From assembly GCA_001794055.1 (NCBI GenBank), contig MGJB01000012.1, positions 1,124-65,123 of the forward strand: 64,000 nt of DNA, in the 5' to 3' direction. The position numbers were made by a program, and so were the translations under genes. Shown one piece after another: positions 3,112 through 62,920 of the stretch. Below the pieces are notes generated by a model that was not told where the DNA came from, did no database searches, and was given only the letters and a program-made list of their open reading frames with translations. Source of the DNA: Candidatus Yanofskybacteria bacterium RIFCSPHIGHO2_01_FULL_41_26. Its GTDB lineage: Bacteria > Patescibacteriota > Minisyncoccia > 2-02-FULL-40-12 > GWA2-44-9. Every line of letters starts with the position of its first letter. Position 1 is the stretch's first letter.

Positions 3112-3951
3112 TTAACCCTTAATATGGCGAGGATATTTTTTAACTTCCAATAGAAGATCTTTGTTGGAATAACGGTGACGCTGAATACGGCGCCAACCAA
3201 AATCTTCATGGGTATTAGTCGATGTCAAAAGTGGACACACAGAACGCACAGCAACAAGCTTTGATCCGCACACTTTTCCACTATCAGGGTCGCGTCTGGT
3301 ATACCAAAGAATCTGGCAGTTTCGTATTTTATCGGCCGATTTATCAGAAGAATCGAGTCGTATAAAATCGTCGTGCCCTAAACTTTCAAATTCAAGCTGA
3401 AGCGCCCTTATAACGTGACCATGACAAACAACAATCACCCGTCTATCCGGGCACTCTCTGGCTAGGTGAGCCATAAAATCTGTTTTTAATCGAAGACACA
3501 ACATTGGAATTGATTCCCCTCCTCCGGCGGGTTGAGAAAGAAAAGGATCCAACTCATATTGCGCTTGTTCCCTAGCAAACAAAGTTTTCTTTTCATCATC
3601 AGGAAGATTGTCTATAAGAGCATGATCTCTTTCCCTTAGTTGAAACTCAACTCGCCATTCAGCGTCAGGAAGATCCATGTAGACAGCAGTCTCCTTGGCG
3701 CGCATATAATCTGAAACATAAAAACGATCCAAGGGCATCGTAATATTATTCTTTAGCCATTTACCTGCCGCTTTAGCTTGCTTAATTCCTTTGTCAGTTA
3801 AACGAAAAGATCGACTGTGTTTGTGCCTGAAGTCAGGAGTAAAAAATCTATTATCTCCCTTGCGGCTGGCCTTATTGGCAACATTGCCTTCTGATTCACC
3901 GTGTCGAACAAGAATTATATCAATCGGTAACATAATTAATAAGTATAACAA
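3112..3951 (-). CDS. Histidine phosphatase (phosphoglycerate-mutase-like) family protein
   Basis: ILVRHGESEGN (RHG catalytic motif) near the N-terminus and a second His in VVCHGHVIRAL. Start may be the internal Met (MLPIDIIL). Confidence 0.65.
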   Translation of the reverse strand: MLYLLIMLPIDIILVRHGESEGNVANKASRKGDNRFFTPDFRHKHSRSFRLTDKGIKQAKAAGKWLKNNITMPLDRFYVSDYMRAKETAVYMDLPDAEWRVEFQLRERDHALIDNLPDDEKKTLFAREQAQYELDPFLSQPAGGGESIPMLCLRLKTDFMAHLARECPDRRVIVVCHGHVIRALQLEFESLGHDDFIRLDSSDKSADKIRNCQILWYTRRDPDSGKVCGSKLVAVRSVCPLLTSTNTHEDFGWRRIQRHRYSNKDLLLEVKKYPRHIKG

Positions 3952-3980
3952 AAAATGTTTTAATAAAACATTTTTTGTTA

Positions 3981-5198
3981 TTATTCATACCCCTTTAATT
4001 TTCCGAGTTTGTGGTGCTGGCGGATTTTTTCAAGAGCTTTAGCCTCTATTTGTCTTATGCGTTCCCGCGTGACCGCAAACACCTTGCCAACTTCTTCAAG
4101 AGTGTGCGTCACGCCATCAGCAAGACCGAACCGCATGTCAAGAATTTTTTGCTCTCTCGGGGTCAGATCGGCAATAATCTCATCAATATAAGTTTTGAGA
4201 ATTTTCCTTGCAGCCGACGTTGAGGGTGATATGGAATCGTCATCAGGAATAAAACTTTCCAACGAACTATCCTCGTCTTCATCTCCAACCGGCGCTTCGA
4301 GAGAAATTGTTTCCTGGGAAATTTTTTGGATATGTCTTACTTTTTCCACTTCCATTCCCATTTCTGAAGCAATTTCTTCCGGCATCGGATCGCGCCCCAA
4401 ATCTTGGACCAAACGCCTTACAACCTGCTGATATTTATTTATGGTTTCCACCATATGGACCGGGATACGGATAGTTCTGCCCTGGTCGGCCAAAGCACGG
4501 GTAATAGCCTGTCTTATCCACCAAGTAGCATAAGTTGAGAATTTATATCCTTTTTTATAATCAAATTTTTCAACGGCTTTAAATAAGCCAATGTTCCCCT
4601 CTTGAATCAAGTCAAGTAGGGTTAGGTTGGCAGAACGACCGACATATTTTTTGGCAATGGAAACAACCAAGCGGAGATTTGAAACAGCAAGTTTTTGCCT
4701 TGCCGATTCATCGTTTTTCTCAATTTTTTTTGCCAGCTCAACTTCCTCGTCTCCGGTAAGCAAGGGGTATCGGCCGATTTCTTTCAAATACATTTGAACC
4801 GAATCGGAAGCGACATCGCCGAATTCAGTTTCTATTTTCTTTTTCTCATCATATTCTTTAACCTTTTCTTCCTCAAAAACTCTTCCCGATTCTATGATGT
4901 TTATGTTGGCCGACTCCAATCTCTCATAAAGAGCTTCCAAACCCTTGATATCTTTTTCTATGCTCGGAAAAGCATTGAGAACTTCGGCTTGAGTCACGAA
5001 ACCTCTTGATTTGCCTTTTTCTATCAAAGCCAAAACACCACTTTCTGATATCGGGCTTTTTTTGCCTGCCTGCCGGTAAGTACGGCCGACTACTTGTTTT
5101 CTCTTGGCTTTTTTGGCAATCTTTTTTGCTTTTTTGGCCTTTTTTACTTTCTTTTTTATCGGCTTTTTGACTTTTTTCTTTTTTAGGTTTTTTTTCAT
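3981..5198 (-). CDS. rpoD: RNA polymerase sigma-70 factor RpoD
   Basis: Region 2 ([40 protein letters not shown]) and region 4 ([14 protein letters not shown]...[20 protein letters not shown]). Lys-rich N-terminal tail. Confidence 0.92.
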
Positions 5199-12000: not shown

Positions 12001-12186
12001 GGTGAAATGATTCTGGATATCTTTGTCACTAATCTCAAGCGAGAAATAAAAATCAAAATGCTCTGACTGATAAAAATTCCACGTGGTTTTTTCCCAAATC
12101 ACTTGATTTTTTCCAAACTGGGCATAAGCCGTCAATGGCATCAACAAAAACAACAAAGCGAGAAAAACAGTGAGTTTTCTGGTCAT
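9019..12186 (-). CDS. Secreted tripartite protein: HExxH metallopeptidase-like domain, TolB/PD40 beta-propeller, C-terminal Omp85/BamA-like beta-barrel
   Basis: 1055 aa. Signal peptide MTRKLTVFLALLFLLMPLTAYAQ, HELAHIF (HExxH), PD40-like repeats (LAYVAFDGG, SPSWSSDGRQLVYTSD), C-terminal barrel ending ...WSFNVRIGFNF (terminal aromatic). Confidence 0.55.
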   Translation of the reverse strand: MTRKLTVFLALLFLLMPLTAYAQFGKNQVIWEKTTWNFYQSEHFDFYFSLEISDKDIQNHFTNLVAHLEGSCEYLSFRLNHQLKKRPIVVVSRTHSQFEALHLAGEMFMPEGVGAYAFPRGSRLLPDTDMILVVKPDFLPVLNRTIYTHELAHIFQFDMVGWSFIGRAGGESIEPWLYEAIADYLANKYAPYSRDDIRKMEQRLAAANVKNPEMGLPTLEMLSQGQANPYSLGAMLFMFLEAKYGEKTVADQIVKIFSQRGQKFSELLADISKGEFYNAEAFDRAHRNYWADKYAKDSLERPKPYQETSSIKGRQIIRQPYPYPLTSPEVSPDDNFVAFLTFNPKNGIVLAVARMLPRDDPPYVSQANRKKRGMFGRKVNVQDPPLKILTKFMPPKHYEYIIAQELNVWPFNGSDLDWWQDPEWVAKVKGADKKELAKLMRVPSVSKISFFARKNKDHALFILDANTGKFLQEVELPLDQAFSPNFSADGKVLYFSAAKNIQRDVYSMNLETHELKNLTNGGVFNSAPRVSPGGTELAYVAFDGGFQKLFLLDLATGNKEQLTYGRWNDNSPSWSSDGRQLVYTSDEKDQIWNLYTLDLATRTNKQWTEYYGGVFTPKFVSGENDRVVYSAYLEDDQFRSYVYSNFELFDLRMKESLRTSVIDNKNENMELAFRSQEAVSEQLDQHQLARPQKPPARWKFYGSNVSIGTSTYWGLFASSQFVVQDVFANRTHAGLYIKYGDFQYTDYTYQDLSRRWGLTVNFNHSQYPLYYPLYNFQGQYSRYPYPNGDYKQFVLNSTWAEETSATFLTEYPFNKWNRVEFGVRPRKRTYFLPLTDADVAYLGDYLPEIDRQFYEFFKASSGQTNVGFITAFVHDTVLYSNNTLGPLPLHGDAMRAQVEYGLGLNKNSASYLTAQIDARRYIRLSGSSLVAVRAAGLTSNRPNGDSVMFLGGNNTLRNYPYFSVAGNQVGYGSAELRFPVADVAILSAIPFNVRGVLFVDYALAKFSDDLFPTRKEWSYGFGLQTNIFLPLNFEWAKTKFAPDKWSFNVRIGFNF

Positions 12187-12269
12187 TTCTTTTCCTAATT
12201 GACAAAGAACCGAAATCTATCGCAAAGCTACACGTTTTATAAACAAAGGTCAATCGTGTCAAATTACTC

Positions 12270-15022: not shown

Positions 15023-15135
15023 AATGCTCTCGGCTTCAGAATTCATTTTGCCCGCCCGCCCATTCCGAGCCGCGCTGTGCGCGGCGAGGAGCGAATTCCG
15101 TTCGAGCTAATTTCAGAATACACCGCCAATTGGAA
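15023..15135. repeat. Right imperfect inverted repeat (~110 bp) of GC-rich cassette
   Basis: Reverse complement of 13921-14032. Contains the internal hairpin ccgcgc-tgt-gcgcgg where the left copy has ccgc-ttcg-cgcgg. Confidence 0.6.
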
Positions 15136-15213
15136 AAATGCAAATTTGAAGAGGTTAGCTCGCGGCGCGTTCTGCGCCGCGAGCTGGCTTCCCCAAATTT
15201 GCATTTTCCCAAC

Positions 15214-15303
15214 TGGCGGAGAGGGTGGGATTTGAACCCACGATGCCCTTTCGAGCATGCCGCCTTTCCAAGGCGGTGGAATAAACCACTATCCGACCTC
15301 TCC
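15214..15303 (-). tRNA. tRNA-Ser (anticodon GGA), CCA encoded
   Basis: GGAGAGG acceptor stem pairing with CCUCUCC, anticodon arm CCGCC-UUGGAAA-GGCGG, long variable arm, T-arm GUGGG-UUCAAAU-CCCAC, 3' GCCA. A GC hairpin plus U-tract terminator follows at 15140-15205. Confidence 0.85.
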
Positions 15304-44562: not shown

Positions 44563-45021
44563 TCGCTCAAACTATATTCCCCCGACTCGACCGATAATAA
44601 AGCACCTCCAGCGGGCGCTTTTTATCTACATGCTCGACATTTCGCAGAACCAAGCCGAAATGCCTCCGCAAGTTCTCCCTGGGAGAGAATATAGCTTTCG
44701 CTTTTAATTAGAATAAAAAGACCCCGCGGACAAGCGAGGTCCCCTTTTTGTATGCCGGAAAGGGTATCCGGCCGACTCCTCGATGGAAGCCGCTTTTGTA
44801 ATTGGTGGGGCTAGTCGTTATCGGCCATCAGTGCGACATGCACTCGATCCGAGGGATTTACGCCCCCTCAGTTAACCTTGCCGTCTCCACCGGGAATCCC
44901 TAGCAGAGAGGTGATGAGTTATTGCCCCTACTTACCTCATCACCGATTTGAAAAAGAAGGTGGGGAAGTCTCCCCGAAATTAATCTCCAAAAAAAGATTT
45001 AGAAACTAATTTCGAGAGGCT

Positions 45022-45355
45022 GGGTTGATAACCCAGCCTACCCGGGACGAACCTACGAAGGCCTCGCTTCCTTGGCCTCCTTCGAGGTCAAGACTTGGCC
45101 ATTCACGATGACGAAGGTCTTTTCCCCGACCCTCACCACCTGCTTCACCGGTACCTGCTTCATTGGATTCTCCCTGGGACCACTGCTTAAGGAGAGTGGC
45201 ATTCCTGACCTTTCGGTCGTGTTATAGAAAGAACTCGCGAAGCGGGAAAGTGAGTAGCAGGATTCTACCTGCACCTCTGGCTCACTACGTGATCCCAATG
45301 GGAGTCCGGGTCTCTTCCAGCACCCTGCATCCGGGCCGCACCCCACCCCCAGCCT
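45022..45355 (-). ncRNA. rnpB: Candidate RNase P RNA (rnpB), low confidence
   Basis: Minus strand GGAAGAGACCCGGACUCCCAUUGGGAUCA resembles P4-5' GGAAAGUCCGGGCUCCAUAGGGCA. A later GUCCCGGGUAGGCUG could be the complementary P4-3' strand. The ends GAGGCUGGG/CCCAGCCUC can pair as P1. Length ~330 nt in a 1.15-kb ORF-free gap. Confidence 0.3.
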
Positions 45356-45609
45356 CGCGAAATTAAATCATATACCATACGACCTAATTTCGCAAGACTA
45401 AGCTTATATAACATATTATACTCTCCTAAAACCAAAATGTCAACCTTTTTTTCTTACCACATCCTCGAAGCCAATCAGCCCCAAGACTACCATTCGAACA
45501 CCCAGCGTGTGTTCTCATTGCCTTTCGTCAGTCGCTCTCCAATAAGAATTGGAACCATGCCCGCTTCCTTCCTCTAAGCGCGCTTTGTGACTGGTTAAAT
45601 TCTCGGTTG

Positions 45610-45716
45610 AGCGAATGCCTTATTCCAAAGAAGAACGTTCGGAGGCTACCCCGGGCCGAGAGAGAGCAAAAACCCAGCAGGGTTTTATGCGGTCTTCGTG
45701 GGATAGGGCATTCGCG
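45610..45716. repeat. Structured intergenic repeat, copy A (just 3' of recA)
   Basis: 77-nt core ccaaagaagaacgttcggaggctaccccgggccgagagagagcaaaaacccagcagggttttatgcggtcttcgtggg enclosed by a 12-bp stem cgaatgccttat/atagggcattcg. Confidence 0.6.
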
Positions 45717-45721
45717 AAAGA

Positions 45722-46756
45722 CTAAGCTTCCAATACTGCTGCTGCCTTAATTTTAGTTACAATTTCTCGCTCCACCTTAGGATTTTCTTTGAGGAATTGG
45801 CGGGAGCCTTCTACCCCTTGGCCAAGCTTTTGTTCACCATAGTTATACCAACTACCAGCTTTAGCAAGAACACCATATTTGACACCTGTATTCACAACAT
45901 CAGAATAACGAGAAATGCCTTCATTGTACAAAATATCAAATTCACAAGTTCTGAAAGGGGGCGCGACCTTGTTCTTAACAATTTTTACCTTGACCCTGTT
46001 TCCTACTATTTTTTCAGCAGCTTGGATTTGAGCGGCCTTTCTGATTTCAATTCTTACAGAAGAATAAAATTTCAACGCCATTCCTCCTGGAGTTGTCTCG
46101 GGATTTCCGAACATAATTCCGATTTTCATTCTCAATTGGTTAATAAAAATTATGGAAGTATTTGATTTGGCGACAATGGCGGTGAGTTTTCTCAAAGCAT
46201 GGGACATCAACCGTGCCTGCAAGCCCATATGCTGCTGATCCATCTCCCCTTCTATTTCTGCCCTCGGCGTTAGTGCCGCCACCGAATCAACAACAATCAC
46301 ATCGATGCCTCCCGACTTAACTAATGATTCAACAATATCCAACGCTTGTTCACCTGTATCAGGCTGAGATATCAAAAGGTTTCCCAAATTAACCCCGATC
46401 TTTTTGGCATATTCGGGATCAAGCGCATGCTCGGCATCAACATAAGCGGCAACTCCGCCCTTCTTCTGGGCTTCGGCCACCACATGTAGACAAAGGGTCG
46501 TTTTGCCGGAACTTTCAGGACCGTATATCTCAATAACTCTGCCCCTGGGTATTCCTCCCACCCCTAAAGCCAAATCCAGCGAAATAGAGCCGGTCGGAAT
46601 GACATCCACATTAACCCTCTTCACATCCCCCAAACGCATAATAGACCCTTCGCCATACTTCTCTTGGATCTCTTTGACGGTCATATCAACGTGTTTGTTG
46701 TTTGTAGTTTCCTCTTGATGCTTCTTCGCCATTTTTGTTGAGAACGCTCCCCTCAA
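45722..46756 (-). CDS. recA: Recombinase RecA
   Basis: [17 protein letters not shown] (Walker A), [22 protein letters not shown]1/L2 loops. 344 aa. Confidence 0.97.
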
Positions 46757-46824
46757 AGCGGTTTTAAATTTATTTAATTATTTTAACAGCATTAATTATT
46801 AAAGCAAATTACTTTTCAACAAAT

Positions 46825-47172
46825 TTAAAACCGCCTTTGAGGCGGTCCAAAGATGTCATCCTGATATGCCTTACATCCGAGTTCAAATTCTGCGCGAGTT
46901 ACATTGTCAGGGTCAGGATATTTTTCGATTTGTCCAATGGTCGCCTTGAGTAGGCGCGGAATCCACATCCAACAAAGATTGTGGCCTTTCTGTTCAGCCA
47001 CTATTTCCAACTCTGTCCGCCAACGTTTTAATGTTTCTTCGGCTTCGCTGGCTCTGGCCGACTGGCGCATGACATCTTTTACTAATTCCTCATTTCTTTT
47101 TTTCAATCTTTCTATTTCATTTTTAAATTCTTCGTGTTCGGTCGGATATTGAGTTGCCACATAATTCTCCAC
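46825..47172 (-). CDS. Hypothetical coiled-coil protein upstream of recA
   Basis: 115 aa with a charged heptad-like N-terminal half (EEFKNEIERLKKRNEELVKD). No domain recognised. Not RecX-like. Confidence 0.45.
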   Translation of the reverse strand: MENYVATQYPTEHEEFKNEIERLKKRNEELVKDVMRQSARASEAEETLKRWRTELEIVAEQKGHNLCWMWIPRLLKATIGQIEKYPDPDNVTRAEFELGCKAYQDDIFGPPQRRF

Positions 47173-47232
47173 AAATCAAAAAGTGCTACCACATAGAGTA
47201 GCACTTTTTAAAAAATATCAAACTAGCTGTTA

Positions 47233-47338
47233 GGGGCGAGGCCTGATCCAAAGAAGAACGTTCGGAGGCTACCCCGGGCCGAGAGAGAGCAAAAATTCAG
47301 CATAATTTTATGCGGTCTTCGTGGGTCAGGTCTCGCCC
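47233..47338. repeat. Structured intergenic repeat, copy B (just 3' of ftsK)
   Basis: Same 77-nt core, in direct orientation to copy A. Differs only in an internal hairpin (AAAAAUUCAGCAUAAUUUU versus AAAAACCCAGCAGGGUUUU, compensatory). Enclosed by a different outer stem gggcgaggcctgatc/gtcaggtctcgccc. Confidence 0.6.
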
Positions 47339-47348
47339 TTAACCAAAA

Positions 47349-49544
47349 CTAAACTTCCTCTGTTTCATCTGCTTCCGCTTCGGGAGTATCGGCATTGATT
47401 CCCGTCTCCCCACCTATGAACTTTACTGGCTCCTGGGCTACCGTACCGTCTGGCCTTATATAAACCTCCCTCGGCTTAGCGCCGTCTCCCGGCCCGATAA
47501 CACCCTTTTCTTCAAGTATATCCAGCAAGCGGGCAGCGCGGGCATAACCGACGCGTAAACGCCTTTGCAACAATGAGGCCGAGGCCTTGCCGGCCAAGAC
47601 AACTGTTTCTTTGGCTTCGCCGTATAGATCATCATCGGTATCATCATTTCCTCCGCCAGTAAATCCTCCGCTGGAATTAATGTTGGCATTGAAATCAACT
47701 TTCAAATCATTTTCTTCACCTATTTCCATGTTCTCGGCTTGCGCCTTGATAAACTTCATAACATCTTTGACTTCTTTTTCGGTTACCATCGCCCCCTGCA
47801 ACCTGCGTGGTTTTGCTACATCACCAGCTAAGAAAAGCATGTCTCCTTTGCCCAGTAATTTCTCAGCTCCGGCCATATCAAGAATGGTTCGAGAATCAAT
47901 TTGGCTAGCTACCTGAAGAGCAACTCGGGAAGTAATGTTAGCCTTGATCAGGCCGGTAATAACCTCAACTGAAGGTCTCTGAGTAGACAAGATAAGATGT
48001 ATTCCAACCGCTCGGGACATTTGAGCCAAACGAACTATAGCTGCCTCCACATCACGCCCGTATGTAGCCATTAAGTCCGCCAACTCATCAATCACAATAA
48101 CAATAACCGGCATGATTGCTTTATCCCTATCCGCCATCTTTGCATTATATGAAAATATGTCTTTTGAACCGCTTTTTGAAAGCGAATCATAACGTCTATC
48201 CATCTCACTCAACGCCCATTTCAAAGCTCCGAGCACTTTTTTATTATCGATAATTACAGGGGTAATCAAGTGGGGAATATCGTTGAACAAAGTAAGCTCC
48301 ACGCGTTTCGGATCTATCAAAATTAATTTCAAAACCTCGGGAGAATGCTTATAAAGCATGGACAAAAGTATAGTATTGATACTGACGGATTTACCAGTGC
48401 CGGTCGCTCCCGCGATCATAAGGTGGGGCATTTTTTCAAGTCCGGCAAAAACTGGATTTCCCGAAACGTCCCTTCCCAAAGCAAGGGGTAGAAAATATTT
48501 AGATTTCTTGAAATCGTCATGGTCAAACATATTTCTCAAGCCGATCAATGCAACTTTTTTGTTCGGAACTTCTATGCCTACCAATGATTTGCCAGGAATA
48601 GGAGCTTCAATTCTGATTGGGTAAGCGGCAAGAGCCAAAGACAAATCAGAATTTAGCGCTGTAATACGAGATAGTTTCATGCCCACCGCCGGCCTCATGG
48701 TGAACTGGGTAACCGTAGGGCCGATAGAGACCTCGCCCATTTCCACATCAATCCCGAAGTTGCCTAAGGTTCTCTTGATGATTGATGCGCTGGCATTGAT
48801 ATCTCCCGTGATCGCTTCTTCTTGATCTTCATGCAAAAGATCTGACGGCGGAAGCACCCATTTGCCTTTTTTAAAATTCTTGATAACGAACTCTTTGTCC
48901 TCAACTTTTATAGGCTTGGCAACCAGAGCCGGTTTTCCGCCAGCTGGCGGATTCCCAACAACTTCGGAGCCTTTCTTGATGACGACATTATCAACCATCC
49001 GCCGGCTGGCAGATTCTTCCTCATCTTTTTTAGATATCAACCCGTAAAGAGGAACATTGAGAGATACAAGCAATGCAATCACAATGAGAGCAAAAAGAAT
49101 TATCAAAGAAGCGCTGAAACCCACGGACGACAAAAGAGGCGCTCCAAGAATAACCCCAAGATATCCGCCCTGAACTAGCCTAGTATCAAAATTCCCGTTT
49201 CCAAATATATAAAAAGTCCCCAAAATAGAACCGACAAAAAGCAAAGTCCCAAACACCGCACCATGATAAATATTCCTTGAAATTGATTTGATGAACGAAA
49301 GCCCCAAAATGACAAACGCCACAGGCACAATAAAAAACCCCCAGCCGAACAGAGAGCGCGCAAAAATATTAAAACCTTCGCCGGCCCAACCGGCTTTGCC
49401 CACAAAACTCAAGATGCTCAAAACTGCCAATATAAAACTGCCTATGCCGTAGATACTATTCTTAGTTTCCTGAGAAATATCAAACTTTGACACCTGCTCT
49501 TCCTTAACTTTTCCCTGCTTTTCCTTCTTTTTATGCCGTGCCAT
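47349..49544 (-). CDS. ftsK: DNA translocase FtsK/SpoIIIE
   Basis: N-terminal 4 TM helices, motor domain GATGTGKSV (Walker A), C-terminal gamma winged-helix (LLQRRLRVGYARAARLLDILEE). Confidence 0.92.
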   Translation of the reverse strand: MARHKKKEKQGKVKEEQVSKFDISQETKNSIYGIGSFILAVLSILSFVGKAGWAGEGFNIFARSLFGWGFFIVPVAFVILGLSFIKSISRNIYHGAVFGTLLFVGSILGTFYIFGNGNFDTRLVQGGYLGVILGAPLLSSVGFSASLIILFALIVIALLVSLNVPLYGLISKKDEEESASRRMVDNVVIKKGSEVVGNPPAGGKPALVAKPIKVEDKEFVIKNFKKGKWVLPPSDLLHEDQEEAITGDINASASIIKRTLGNFGIDVEMGEVSIGPTVTQFTMRPAVGMKLSRITALNSDLSLALAAYPIRIEAPIPGKSLVGIEVPNKKVALIGLRNMFDHDDFKKSKYFLPLALGRDVSGNPVFAGLEKMPHLMIAGATGTGKSVSINTILLSMLYKHSPEVLKLILIDPKRVELTLFNDIPHLITPVIIDNKKVLGALKWALSEMDRRYDSLSKSGSKDIFSYNAKMADRDKAIMPVIVIVIDELADLMATYGRDVEAAIVRLAQMSRAVGIHLILSTQRPSVEVITGLIKANITSRVALQVASQIDSRTILDMAGAEKLLGKGDMLFLAGDVAKPRRLQGAMVTEKEVKDVMKFIKAQAENMEIGEENDLKVDFNANINSSGGFTGGGNDDTDDDLYGEAKETVVLAGKASASLLQRRLRVGYARAARLLDILEEKGVIGPGDGAKPREVYIRPDGTVAQEPVKFIGGETGINADTPEAEADETEEV

Positions 49545-61700: not shown

Positions 61701-61816
61701 AAGCGTGAAACTCTAATCCATTGGAGGGACTTACGGAGCTCGACGGAGCGAGTACGAGGCAAAATTCCAGCAGGAATTTATGCCGTGCCCGAGAATGGGT
61801 TAGGGTTTCACGCTCC

Positions 61817-62920
61817 TCACCCATACCTTTTAATACTCTGCAAAATCCCCAATCCGCTCATGATGGAAATAAGATAACTGCCACCATAGCTCAAGAACGG
61901 GAACGGAATTCCTGTCACCGGCATCAGTCCAATATTTACAGAGGCACTAATAATAGCGTGGTTAAATATGAATATGGTGATTCCCACAGAAAATATCTTC
62001 CCAAAATTGGAAATAACTCCCCTGCCTATGGCCAGTATCCTATATATGATAAATAAAATTGCGGACATCACCAGACCAACTCCGACAAAACCAAATTGCT
62101 CGGCCGTAGCGGCAAAAACAAAATCATTGTGAGATTCCGGCAAAAATCCAAGAGTTGATTGAGAACCCTTGCCCAAACCATTCCCAAACCAGTAGCCAGA
62201 ACCAATGGCAATTTTGGACTGAATCAGATTATATCCGCTCCCCCTCGGATCATTACCGGGATTTACAAAAGTCAGAAGTCGGTCTTTCTGATAGGGCCTT
62301 AAGACAAACATCCAAGAACCGTAAGAAATCATTACGGCCAAAACAGCTAAAAGAAAAAGGTGTTTTTTGTTAATTCCGACCGCGACCAAAATGCTTATCC
62401 ATATCAGAGAAAAAATTATAGCCGAACCCAGGTCGGGTTGAACTAAAATTATCAAAACAGGAATACCGAAATAAATTCCAGAGATTAATATGTGCTTGAG
62501 TTGATTGACATGAACATGCCTCTGGGAAAAATATTTAGCCATCAGAACGATAAGCATAAGTTTCGCCAATTCAGCCGGCTCAAAAGTAAATTGCCCAAGA
62601 ACTATCCAAGCATTTACCCCTCTGACCGAGCGAGAATAAAACGTCAGAAGCAAAAGAAACACCGAAATAAAGTAAAGTAATAAAACTGGAAAAGAATAAT
62701 TTTTCAGATAACGGTAATTAAAAAAGGACAACAATACCATTACCCCCAACCCTACGGTTACAAAAATTACCTGTTTCGTAAAAAACGATCCAAACCCTTC
62801 AATGCCATACATATTAAGAATACTAAACAAAGAAATAGCCGCTATCGCGGCAAACAAAGGAAGATCGATTTCCTTAAAATAATTACTAATAGAATTTTTG
62901 AAACTTTTCCTGGGTGCCAT
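61817..62920 (-). CDS. SEDS-family peptidoglycan glycosyltransferase (RodA/FtsW)
   Basis: 10 TM helices. LPESHNDFVFAATAEQFGFVG and SYGGSYLIS conserved blocks. Confidence 0.85.
   Translation of the reverse strand: MAPRKSFKNSISNYFKEIDLPLFAAIAAISLFSILNMYGIEGFGSFFTKQVIFVTVGLGVMVLLSFFNYRYLKNYSFPVLLLYFISVFLLLLTFYSRSVRGVNAWIVLGQFTFEPAELAKLMLIVLMAKYFSQRHVHVNQLKHILISGIYFGIPVLIILVQPDLGSAIIFSLIWISILVAVGINKKHLFLLAVLAVMISYGSWMFVLRPYQKDRLLTFVNPGNDPRGSGYNLIQSKIAIGSGYWFGNGLGKGSQSTLGFLPESHNDFVFAATAEQFGFVGVGLVMSAILFIIYRILAIGRGVISNFGKIFSVGITIFIFNHAIISASVNIGLMPVTGIPFPFLSYGGSYLISIMSGLGILQSIKRYG

Follow-up and report, generated by a model that had tools for sequence, protein, structure and literature searches.

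Behind the recA and ftsK genes of Candidatus Yanofskybacteria bacterium RIFCSPHIGHO2_01_FULL_41_26, two almost identical and strongly structured sequences (c1 and c2) occupy the intergenic spacers, which raises the question whether such sequences are RNA genes, 3'-end parts of the neighboring transcripts, or small mobile repeats. We analyzed the 64,000-nt stretch of contig MGJB01000012.1 that contains them (the window). Both copies belong to a new family of intergenic hairpin elements whose structure is strand-specific and which has three members in the window, namely previously undescribed, non-coding imperfect palindromes of ~110-170 nt in Candidatus Yanofskybacteria, which are ultra-small groundwater bacteria of the Candidate Phyla Radiation (CPR). 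As to their nature, we favor, with about as much credence as doubt, the reading that they are selfish repeats comparable to repetitive extragenic palindromes (REP) or REPINs, to enterobacterial repetitive intergenic consensus sequences (ERIC), or to MITEs (miniature transposable elements with inverted repeats), and that their single-strand fold is preserved because a mobilizing or recombining machinery recognizes it.

Copies in the window and their common fold

The copies c1 and c2 align without gaps in direct orientation (45624-45707 with 47247-47330) at 92% identity over 84 nt, and there are exactly two occurrences of a 35-nt core string in the window, where shuffles give an expectation of 0, which confirms the two direct copies with a conserved core that an initial annotation of this DNA had described. 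Each copy follows immediately on the stop codon of a minus-strand gene, as was also stated there. The two copies had furthermore been said to bracket recA, and recA indeed lies between them, but so do an open reading frame (ORF) for 115 amino acids and a terminator hairpin (Table 1).

Table 1. Family members, helices of copy c1 and neighboring features, with positions in the window
Feature	Position	Strand	Remarks
Copy c1, type A element	45609..45717	+	5 nt past recA stop; folded strand antisense to recA
Copy c2, type A element	47230..47342	+	between ftsK stop (10 nt off) and conserved terminator
Copy c3, type B element	61702..61814	+	covariance model 28.6 bits, E 1e-4; minimum free energy -59.6, z -7.1
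c1 P1, 5' arm	45611..45627	+	pairs with 45699-45715; 17 bp, 2 G-U
c1 P2, 5' strand GAAGA	45630..45634	+	pairs with 45693-45697 (TCTTC)
c1 P3 hairpin	45638..45662	+	preferred model UUC-GGA-GGCU-ACCCCG-GGCC-GA-GAG; GGA/GA internal loop conserved
c1 P4 hairpin, GCAAAAACCC-AGCA-GGGUUUUAUGC	45666..45690	+	tip variable, covarying
recA (context)	45722..46732	-	
115-aa ORF between c2 and recA (context)	46825..47172	-	
Bidirectional intrinsic-terminator hairpin, AAAAAGTGCTAC...GTAGCACTTTTT (context)	47178..47209		kept in L023 and L028; outside the element
ftsK (context)	47349..49544	-	
FtsW/RodA-family gene upstream of c3 (context)	61817..62920	-	

On the plus strand, the copies have a predicted fold in common, in which a closing helix P1 of 17-22 bp is followed by a 2x1 internal loop, the helix P2 (GAAGA/UCUUC in c1 and c2), and a three-way junction with the hairpins P3 and P4, the latter being an A/U-rich stem with a variable tip. 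The minimum free energies are -53.6 kcal/mol for c1 (z -6.6) and -59.6 kcal/mol for c2 (z -6.9), and the complementary strands are worse by 9-14 kcal/mol (-44.2 kcal/mol in case of the minus strand of c1). P1 of c1 is continued outward by a tandem G.A (45609-10 / 45716-17) and two more pairs, and in c2 an alternative small hairpin GCAUA/UAUGC is also possible. Between the cores of c1 and c2, there are 0 substitutions at 69 positions; in P1 and the P4 tip, by contrast, compensated changes have reached saturation. The P4 hairpins differ by five substitutions (AAAACCC/GGGTTTT in c1 versus AAAATTC/TAATTTT in c2, i.e. ACCC/GGGT versus ATTC/TAAT), and the compensatory character that had been ascribed to this difference holds for two of the three changed pairs, whereas the loop-closing pair is lost in c2. 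In a similar way, the outer stems had been presented as different, and they do have the quoted sequences, but they reach 17-22 bp and are not unrelated: as both follow the pattern 5' GCGA..GCC / GG(C/T)..TCGC 3', they appear to be diverged homologues.

A covariance model built from eight copies, which had been suggested as a check, detects the third copy c3 in the window, 3 nt past the stop codon of an FtsW/RodA-family gene. This type B element has the same architecture with a diverged P1 (21 bp), P2 (GGG/CCC), P3 (UAC-GGA-GCUC-GACG-GAGC-GA-GUA) and P4 (GCAAAAUUCC-AGCA-GGAAUUUAUGC). A near-identical type B copy exists in a related genome (L028; loci outside the window carry L numbers), where P3 has changed from GCUC/GAGC to ACUC/GAGU and contains a 51-nt insertion, and where the outer P1 is entirely different in sequence and perfectly paired. 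The type B core is almost identical in the window genome and L028, though the neutral spacer around it is unalignable.

In an alignment of nine sequences that was derived from and fitted to the model, which biases the figures towards structure, the paired cells amount to 92.4%, and both partners have changed in 14 of the 33 pairs; such values are reached in 0 of 500 shuffles, slid partners pair at 32-58%, and the folds of the individual sequences as well as the segment table agree. P2 becomes TCAGA/TCTGA in L019 and contains a G-U pair in L013, the P4 tips read ACCC/GGGT, ATCC/GGAT, ATTC/GAAT, TTCC/GGAA or AAT/ATT, and P3 covaries between the types while its loops stay conserved. Within type A, P2, P3 and the proximal part of P4 are nearly invariant. 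In P1, tandem G.A pairs are swapped for Watson-Crick pairs (GCGA/GAGC in L013, L015 and L019, GCGA/TCGC in c1 and c2, TAGC/GCTA in L014), and with these changes the helix stays uninterrupted, as one would expect of a P1 that is part of the unit. Expansion segments are found in hairpin loops, namely in P4 of L017 and in P3 of L022, L023 and L028. In each of the 12 elements, one strand folds better than the other; G-U pairs number 49 on the folded strand versus 27 on the other, and single positions interchange U-G, U-A and C-G. More copies and real covariation thus support the idea that the core is conserved and that the helices, although variable, are maintained by structural constraint.

For P3, we rejected the RNAfold optimum (GUUCGG-A-GG-CUA-CC-CCGGGC), as its G39-C50 pair is broken in three independent ways (L016, L014, L009). 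The model with the GGA/GA loop is supported by type B, and it leaves G39 and C50 unpaired, which are the two type A positions that vary without compensation. The loop itself looks like a bulge-containing tandem sheared G.A. A K-turn was not supported on inspection by eye. For a direct repeat GAGCGA that flanks L013, L015 and L019, we preferred tandem G.A pairing to a target duplication and rejected the latter, since Watson-Crick pairs are found at this place in c1 and L014, and a short ORF starting at a conserved ATG was dismissed for lack of a ribosome-binding site and of conservation.

Distribution, turnover and the origin of the closing stems

A pattern scan of metagenomes revealed eight loci with the same core, six of which are distinct (Rifle, Hainich and other groundwater samples). 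The loci of the family carry several versions of the closing stem and are also found behind SOD-like, dnaK and other genes. Larger variants of the element occur in L022/L032 and L023, and L017, L018 and L020 have a 52-nt insertion in P4. In species-representative genomes, a structure-tolerant pattern scan gave only two chance hits, both inside Alcanivorax coding sequence, and three scans of viral contigs gave nothing but one chance 18-mer in high-GC coding DNA that is not matched by the covariance model. Two neighboring observations concern the same loci. L016 (6200-6365) and L022 (11258-11371, also L032) contain a conserved structured block TTCTCGGTCCGGATTTTGTCAAG...TTGACAAACCATGCAATCCGGATTCGAAAG inside a long hairpin, which follows dnaK in one genome and recA in another, and this block may represent an additional family of repeats or RNAs. 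L023, which carries a type B-like element behind recA, has a reverse-transcriptase gene (RVT_1, 283 aa; 3914-4765) ~5 kb upstream of recA, and no link between the two is established.

How stable are the elements at their sites? Orthologous loci of relatives were found via RecA and FtsW homologues, and we compared L021-L024, L028-L032 and L034 (RecA 86-96% or FtsW 89% identical). Between the ftsK stop codon and the terminator, where the window has the type A copy c2, there is a type B element in L028 (RecA 95%), an element that we call type H in L021 and L030 (95%), and no element in L022, L023 and L024. At the 3' site of recA, the type A copy c1 of the window corresponds to type H in L021, L029 and L030, to the large variants in L022/L032 and L023, and to a canonical terminator only in L024 and L028. 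At the 3' site of ftsW, the type B copy c3 corresponds to type H in L034 (FtsW 89%). Presence and absence at orthologous sites of relatives, as looked for in MITEs, are thus observed. The empty ftsK sites (L022, L023, L024) contain no hairpin at the place of c2, and the adjacent terminator is intact; where this site is occupied, the elements (c2, type B in L028, type H) have unrelated closing stems. Judged against the empty site of L023, the 6-nt sequence TAGTTT stands as a direct repeat on both sides of c2. No target-site duplication is evident at c1, and the candidate CCTNACCCA at c3 was rejected, as it also surrounds the different element in L034.

Type H is an unrelated-looking 78-nt hairpin repeat, CAACC-GGC-GGAGGGAGACGCC-(29-nt AT-rich loop)-GGCGTCTCCCTCC-GTATGCATAGA-GGTTG, of which the window contains no copy. 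In a sister species, it is a high-copy repeat with nearly identical copies, 5 of them in ~27 kb, situated behind ftsK, recA, ftsW, an ABC gene and also rpoC, where the window has nothing (L021 1879-1956 and 4194-4272; L034 2794-2872, 4559-4636 and ~12110-12190; L029; L030). In some copies, the inner stem-loop is flipped relative to the outer CAACC...GGTTG, which suggests an inversion across the 12-13-bp arms. Together, these comparisons show that lineage-specific hairpin repeats repeatedly occupy the same permissive spacers.

The initial annotation had considered that a small element inserts into pre-existing hairpin loops. In such a scenario, the core (TTATYCCA...TGGGATRA, minimally AAGAAG...CTTCGTG) would move separately as a module and settle in loops of REP-like or terminator hairpins already present, and the stems would be derived from the host. 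There is one good case for this, L017, in which a type A core lies inside the stem and ~35 nt of the flanks of a type H element, instead of the 29-nt AT-rich loop that type H has in L021, L029, L030 and L034. Moreover, the closing stems that accompany the same core come from at least two families unrelated to each other, A1 and A2 (the latter in L016 and L010), and the A1 copies contain a conserved unit with its own 8-bp inverted ends (TTATYCCA/TGGGATRA) that abut CC at the one side and GG at the other. Even a known analogue exists, as in Pseudomonas putida the transposase of ISPpu9 (IS110 family) transfers the ssr9 module into REP sequences (PMC12288879). Being a small non-coding module that can move without its transposase gene and lands in palindromic repeats, ssr9 would give rise to a conserved core between inverted repeats of host origin, as in L017. 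In our case, neither an IS110 transposase nor a bridge-RNA-like partner was seen, and most of the closing stems behave as part of the unit. In L013, L014, L015 and L019, it is the middle of P1 that varies, whereas the outer stem GAGCGACACC/GGTRGAGCGA shows the same degree of conservation as the core, and the above-described exchange of G.A for Watson-Crick pairs keeps P1 continuous, as if it were part of the unit. L017 itself is a replacement rather than a simple insertion, because no remnant of the type H loop flanks the core. The hairpin-less empty ftsK sites and the unrelated closing stems of elements at this one site further argue against host-derived stems. Insertion into hairpin loops is therefore not general, and we consider it quite unlikely as an explanation for the family.

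The closing stems of c1, c2, L013-L019, L017 and type H follow a common G(C/A)GA-N2-3-CC / GG-N2-3-TC(G/T)C pattern and may therefore all be homologous. Mosaics of closing stems could originate from recombination between family members; a search of the window for nearby sequences from which the arms could have been copied found no source. In L010 (11106-11283), the core boundary of c1 (AAGAAGAACG) is precisely the point at which a foreign 5' flank is attached, and the arm of this flank (AAAGCTTGGGACT) corresponds to the family of closing stems found in L016. This hybrid is either a recombinant or an assembly chimera formed via a further copy in the population, and it shows that copies of the element recombine or confuse assembly. 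A rearrangement of the recA region, which had also been envisaged, is possible, as c1 and c2 have identical direct repeats of 49 nt and 20 nt at 1.6 kb distance, and the 49-nt repeats could incidentally promote a deletion of the recA segment. Contigs of near-identical strains from 10 samples (L001-L010) all contain both copies, in L009 with three point differences, and apart from the join in L010 no such rearrangement and no deletion variant is seen in them.

Genomic context and possible functions in the host

With respect to the genes, 10 of the 12 elements are found within 45 nt of a stop codon, and in nine of these ten the folded strand is antisense to that gene. This antisense bias is suggestive but unproven, because the copies represent only about seven independent sites. 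The element of L019 is situated between divergent gene starts. The folded strand is the C-rich strand in seven of nine loci. In our scan, neither a sigma-70-like promoter upstream nor a terminator downstream of c1 and c2 was recognizable, while the same scan finds a perfect TTGACA-17-TATAAT promoter (12/12 consensus) 170 nt from c1, which serves another RNA. Copy c2 even lies directly downstream, on its own strand, of the bidirectional terminator. An independent plus-strand small RNA gene is unsupported on these grounds, and neither an own promoter and terminator nor the conserved synteny of such a gene was found. The proposal of a structured RNA as independent gene is thus not supported, as the elements lack flanking promoters and terminators, are mostly antisense, and turn over at their sites.

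This does not yet answer whether the fold may act as an RNA in another way, i.e. whether the elements are paralogous copies of a cellular structured non-coding RNA family with a functional plus-strand transcript that might, for example, bind a protein or be catalytic. Invariant junctions, compensated helices and expansion segments in hairpin loops constitute a pattern that is typical of functional RNAs, and G-U pairs as well as tandem G.A motifs occur on one strand only, but also single-stranded DNA stabilizes G-T wobbles and tandem G.A. The cores of c1 and c2 are identical while P1 is saturated with changes, and the type B cores of the window genome and L028 have remained nearly the same next to a neutral spacer that cannot be aligned any more. 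All this would fit selection on a functional RNA, but the absence of promoter-like sites and terminators at c1 and c2, the terminator directly in front of c2, the antisense position of the folded strand in nine of ten stop-proximal copies and the lack of site conservation between relatives speak against a cellular RNA family, which we therefore regard as possible but doubtful.

Could the elements then simply belong to the 3' ends of the upstream genes? As cis-acting terminators, mRNA-stabilizing hairpins or RNase III sites, they would function via P1 in either orientation, and the core would be incidental. The position close to stop codons agrees with this, and canonical terminators fill the same spacers in relatives, which suggests that they are functionally interchangeable with the elements. 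Also the complementary strand, which would be the strand in the mRNA, still folds at -35 to -50 kcal/mol. However, no T-run that could serve as U-tract follows P1 on either strand, so that c1 and c2 do not qualify as intrinsic terminators, and c2 exists in addition to a genuine, conserved terminator. The fold is optimized on the strand that is missing from the mRNA, the element of L019 has no gene end at its side, and the conserved junction is left unexplained. A 3'-end function is for these reasons very unlikely.

Some other structured features of the region may be mentioned here. The perfect promoter (45443-45415) belongs to an apparent non-coding RNA gene of ~690 nt between rpsR and recA (44717-45443, minus strand), with a terminator hairpin at 44717-44755 and a predicted fold of -301 kcal/mol (z -6.1). 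Blocks of this RNA are conserved in L021, L022, L029 and L032. It matches no Rfam family, tRNA or tmRNA, and it contains a few RNase P RNA-like strings (CCCGGGUAGGCUG) with no match to RNase P models; no tmRNA or tRNA was found to adjoin c1. A 15-nt direct repeat, CG(C/A)AAGACTAAGCTT, is present at 45391-45405, which is the predicted 5' end of the ~690-nt RNA, and at 45715-45729, right after c1, where it comprises the last recA codons and the stop codon; the two repeats together enclose c1, the spacer and the promoter. Directly upstream of recA (46751-46842), there is a 21-23-bp inverted repeat with an AT-rich loop of ~40-50 nt, which contains promoter-like hexamers in recA direction and resembles in style the AT-loop type H hairpins of relatives. 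Another inverted repeat, with 46-nt arms that are 85% complementary and a loop of 5 nt (15123-15219), adjoins the single tRNA gene in the window, an 87-nt gene on the minus strand (15217-15303) that has a long variable arm. Past the end of the window (L025 14-2027, ~64.7-66.7 kb), two LAGLIDADG homing-endonuclease ORFs are found, which are probably inside introns of rRNA genes. Such introns are common in CPR bacteria.

Relation to known families and the favored mechanism

What known families come closest to these elements? At gathering thresholds, Rfam 15 recognizes only a tRNA in the whole window, and permissive searches (E up to 10 and 5) add only chance miRNA-precursor hairpins with 14-26 bits, as compared with gathering thresholds of 45-142. 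BLAST searches against plasmids and phages gave no similarity, and in the literature we found no description of non-coding repeats or structured RNAs in CPR/Patescibacteria. The initial annotation had named as refutation of its view that only these two copies exist with no additional covariation and that the core matches a known REP/BIME-type repeat; this is not the case, as there are more than two copies and nothing known matches them.

Like REP, BIME and REPIN sequences, the elements are short, non-coding, imperfect palindromes near the 3' ends of genes, which are multi-copy, fold into hairpins when single-stranded and belong to lineage-specific families, and in case of the type H repeat of the relatives the similarity to REP/REPIN is especially high. 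In contrast to REP sequences, which are palindromes of 20-40 nt with a GTAG-type head, the elements have no such conserved head, and while a REPIN is an inverted REP doublet with conserved stems, we have here one hairpin of 110-170 nt with a three-way junction, a variable closing stem and a conserved center. REP-type families have tens to hundreds of copies per genome; in the 64 kb of the window there are 3 copies of the element, and ~27 kb of a relative contain 5 of type H. A RAYT gene, the partner of REPINs, is not annotated on the 68.6-kb contig and 10-kb flanks. ERIC sequences are imperfect palindromes of ~127 bp that are highly conserved in sequence across species at differing chromosomal positions; there are variants with internal insertions at fixed points, and orientation-dependent effects have been reported. 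These features are comparable to the new family, but sequence similarity, fold and host phylum are not, and blastn of c1 against 5,426 complete E. coli genomes (E up to 0.01) gave no match that would indicate ERIC homology. With MITEs such as Correia/NEMIS, RUP and BOX, the elements have in common that they are small, non-autonomous, and present or absent between relatives, with a possible 6-bp target duplication at c2. Unlike in MITEs, the copies have no common terminal inverted repeats, as the outer P1 differs in c1, c2, c3, L016 and L017; only the inner 8-bp pair TTATYCCA/TGGGATRA is common within subtype A1, and no parent insertion sequence is known.

Two further groups are similar in their architecture. 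Self-cleaving ribozymes (hammerhead, twister, twister-sister, pistol, hatchet) likewise occur in multiple copies of 60-110 nt with conserved junctions and covarying stems, in varied intergenic contexts and both orientations, but there is no match to an Rfam model (E up to 10), P2, P3 and proximal P4 are nearly invariant within type A, and no cleavage site can be inferred. The attC sites of integrons conserve structure over sequence, lie just past stop codons and have their folded strand antisense to the upstream ORF, as in case of our elements. However, the RYYYAAC...GTTRRRY boxes are absent at the stem base of c1, c2 and c3 (only c2 has GTTAGGG...CCCTTAAC, in reversed order), and the neighbors are core genes in conserved synteny rather than cassettes.

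The selfish-repeat reading that we favor would imply that permissive spacers behind genes receive the whole hairpin, either as a copy or in exchange when family members recombine, and that the element is not a small RNA gene with a transcription of its own. Such a transfer might proceed through a single-stranded intermediate, either single-stranded DNA or RNA, whose fold is recognized by a putative trans-acting enzyme. A mechanism of this kind would require the junction sequence to be conserved, whereas P1 and the P4 tip need only remain paired.

Several observations weigh against this reading. The copy number of 3 per 64 kb looks low, relaxed searches found no decayed copies, and there is no insertion polymorphism among near-identical strains, as L001-L010 and L025-L027 all carry the copies. 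No mobilizing gene was seen on the 68-kb contig and short flanks. The repeat TAGTTT at c2 may be a chance occurrence, as the candidate duplication at c3 was disproved. Closing stems that differ between copies with an identical core are unlike the terminal repeats of MITEs and hard to explain by simple copy-and-paste. Finally, and as the main counter-argument, the 69 unchanged core positions next to the saturated P1 and P4 tip argue for purifying selection on each resident copy, and such in-place selection fits a host function at least as well.

A more far-reaching interpretation is that the family represents a new class of functional single-stranded fold. This could be a small ribozyme or protein-recruiting RNA that is dispersed in CPR bacteria, or else the recognition fold of a hairpin-homing mobilization system, in which a conserved three-way-junction “cargo” would be swapped in and out of REP-like hairpins. 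Such swapping would explain that the same core is found with unrelated, perfectly paired closing stems and that three sites contain different cargo in sister species. We regard this interpretation as unlikely.

Whichever of these interpretations applies, the family turns over within a genus at sites that adjoin recA, ftsK and ftsW. The genomes of CPR bacteria (Patescibacteria) are tiny and gene-dense, and the family helps to ask how selfish or regulatory nucleic-acid elements persist when genomes are streamlined. It also bears on strain typing and on assembly errors, as one contig breaks inside a copy, and it is a handle on the mobilizing enzymes of these organisms. If the fold is that of an active RNA, it would represent a new motif class that is specific to an uncultured phylum.

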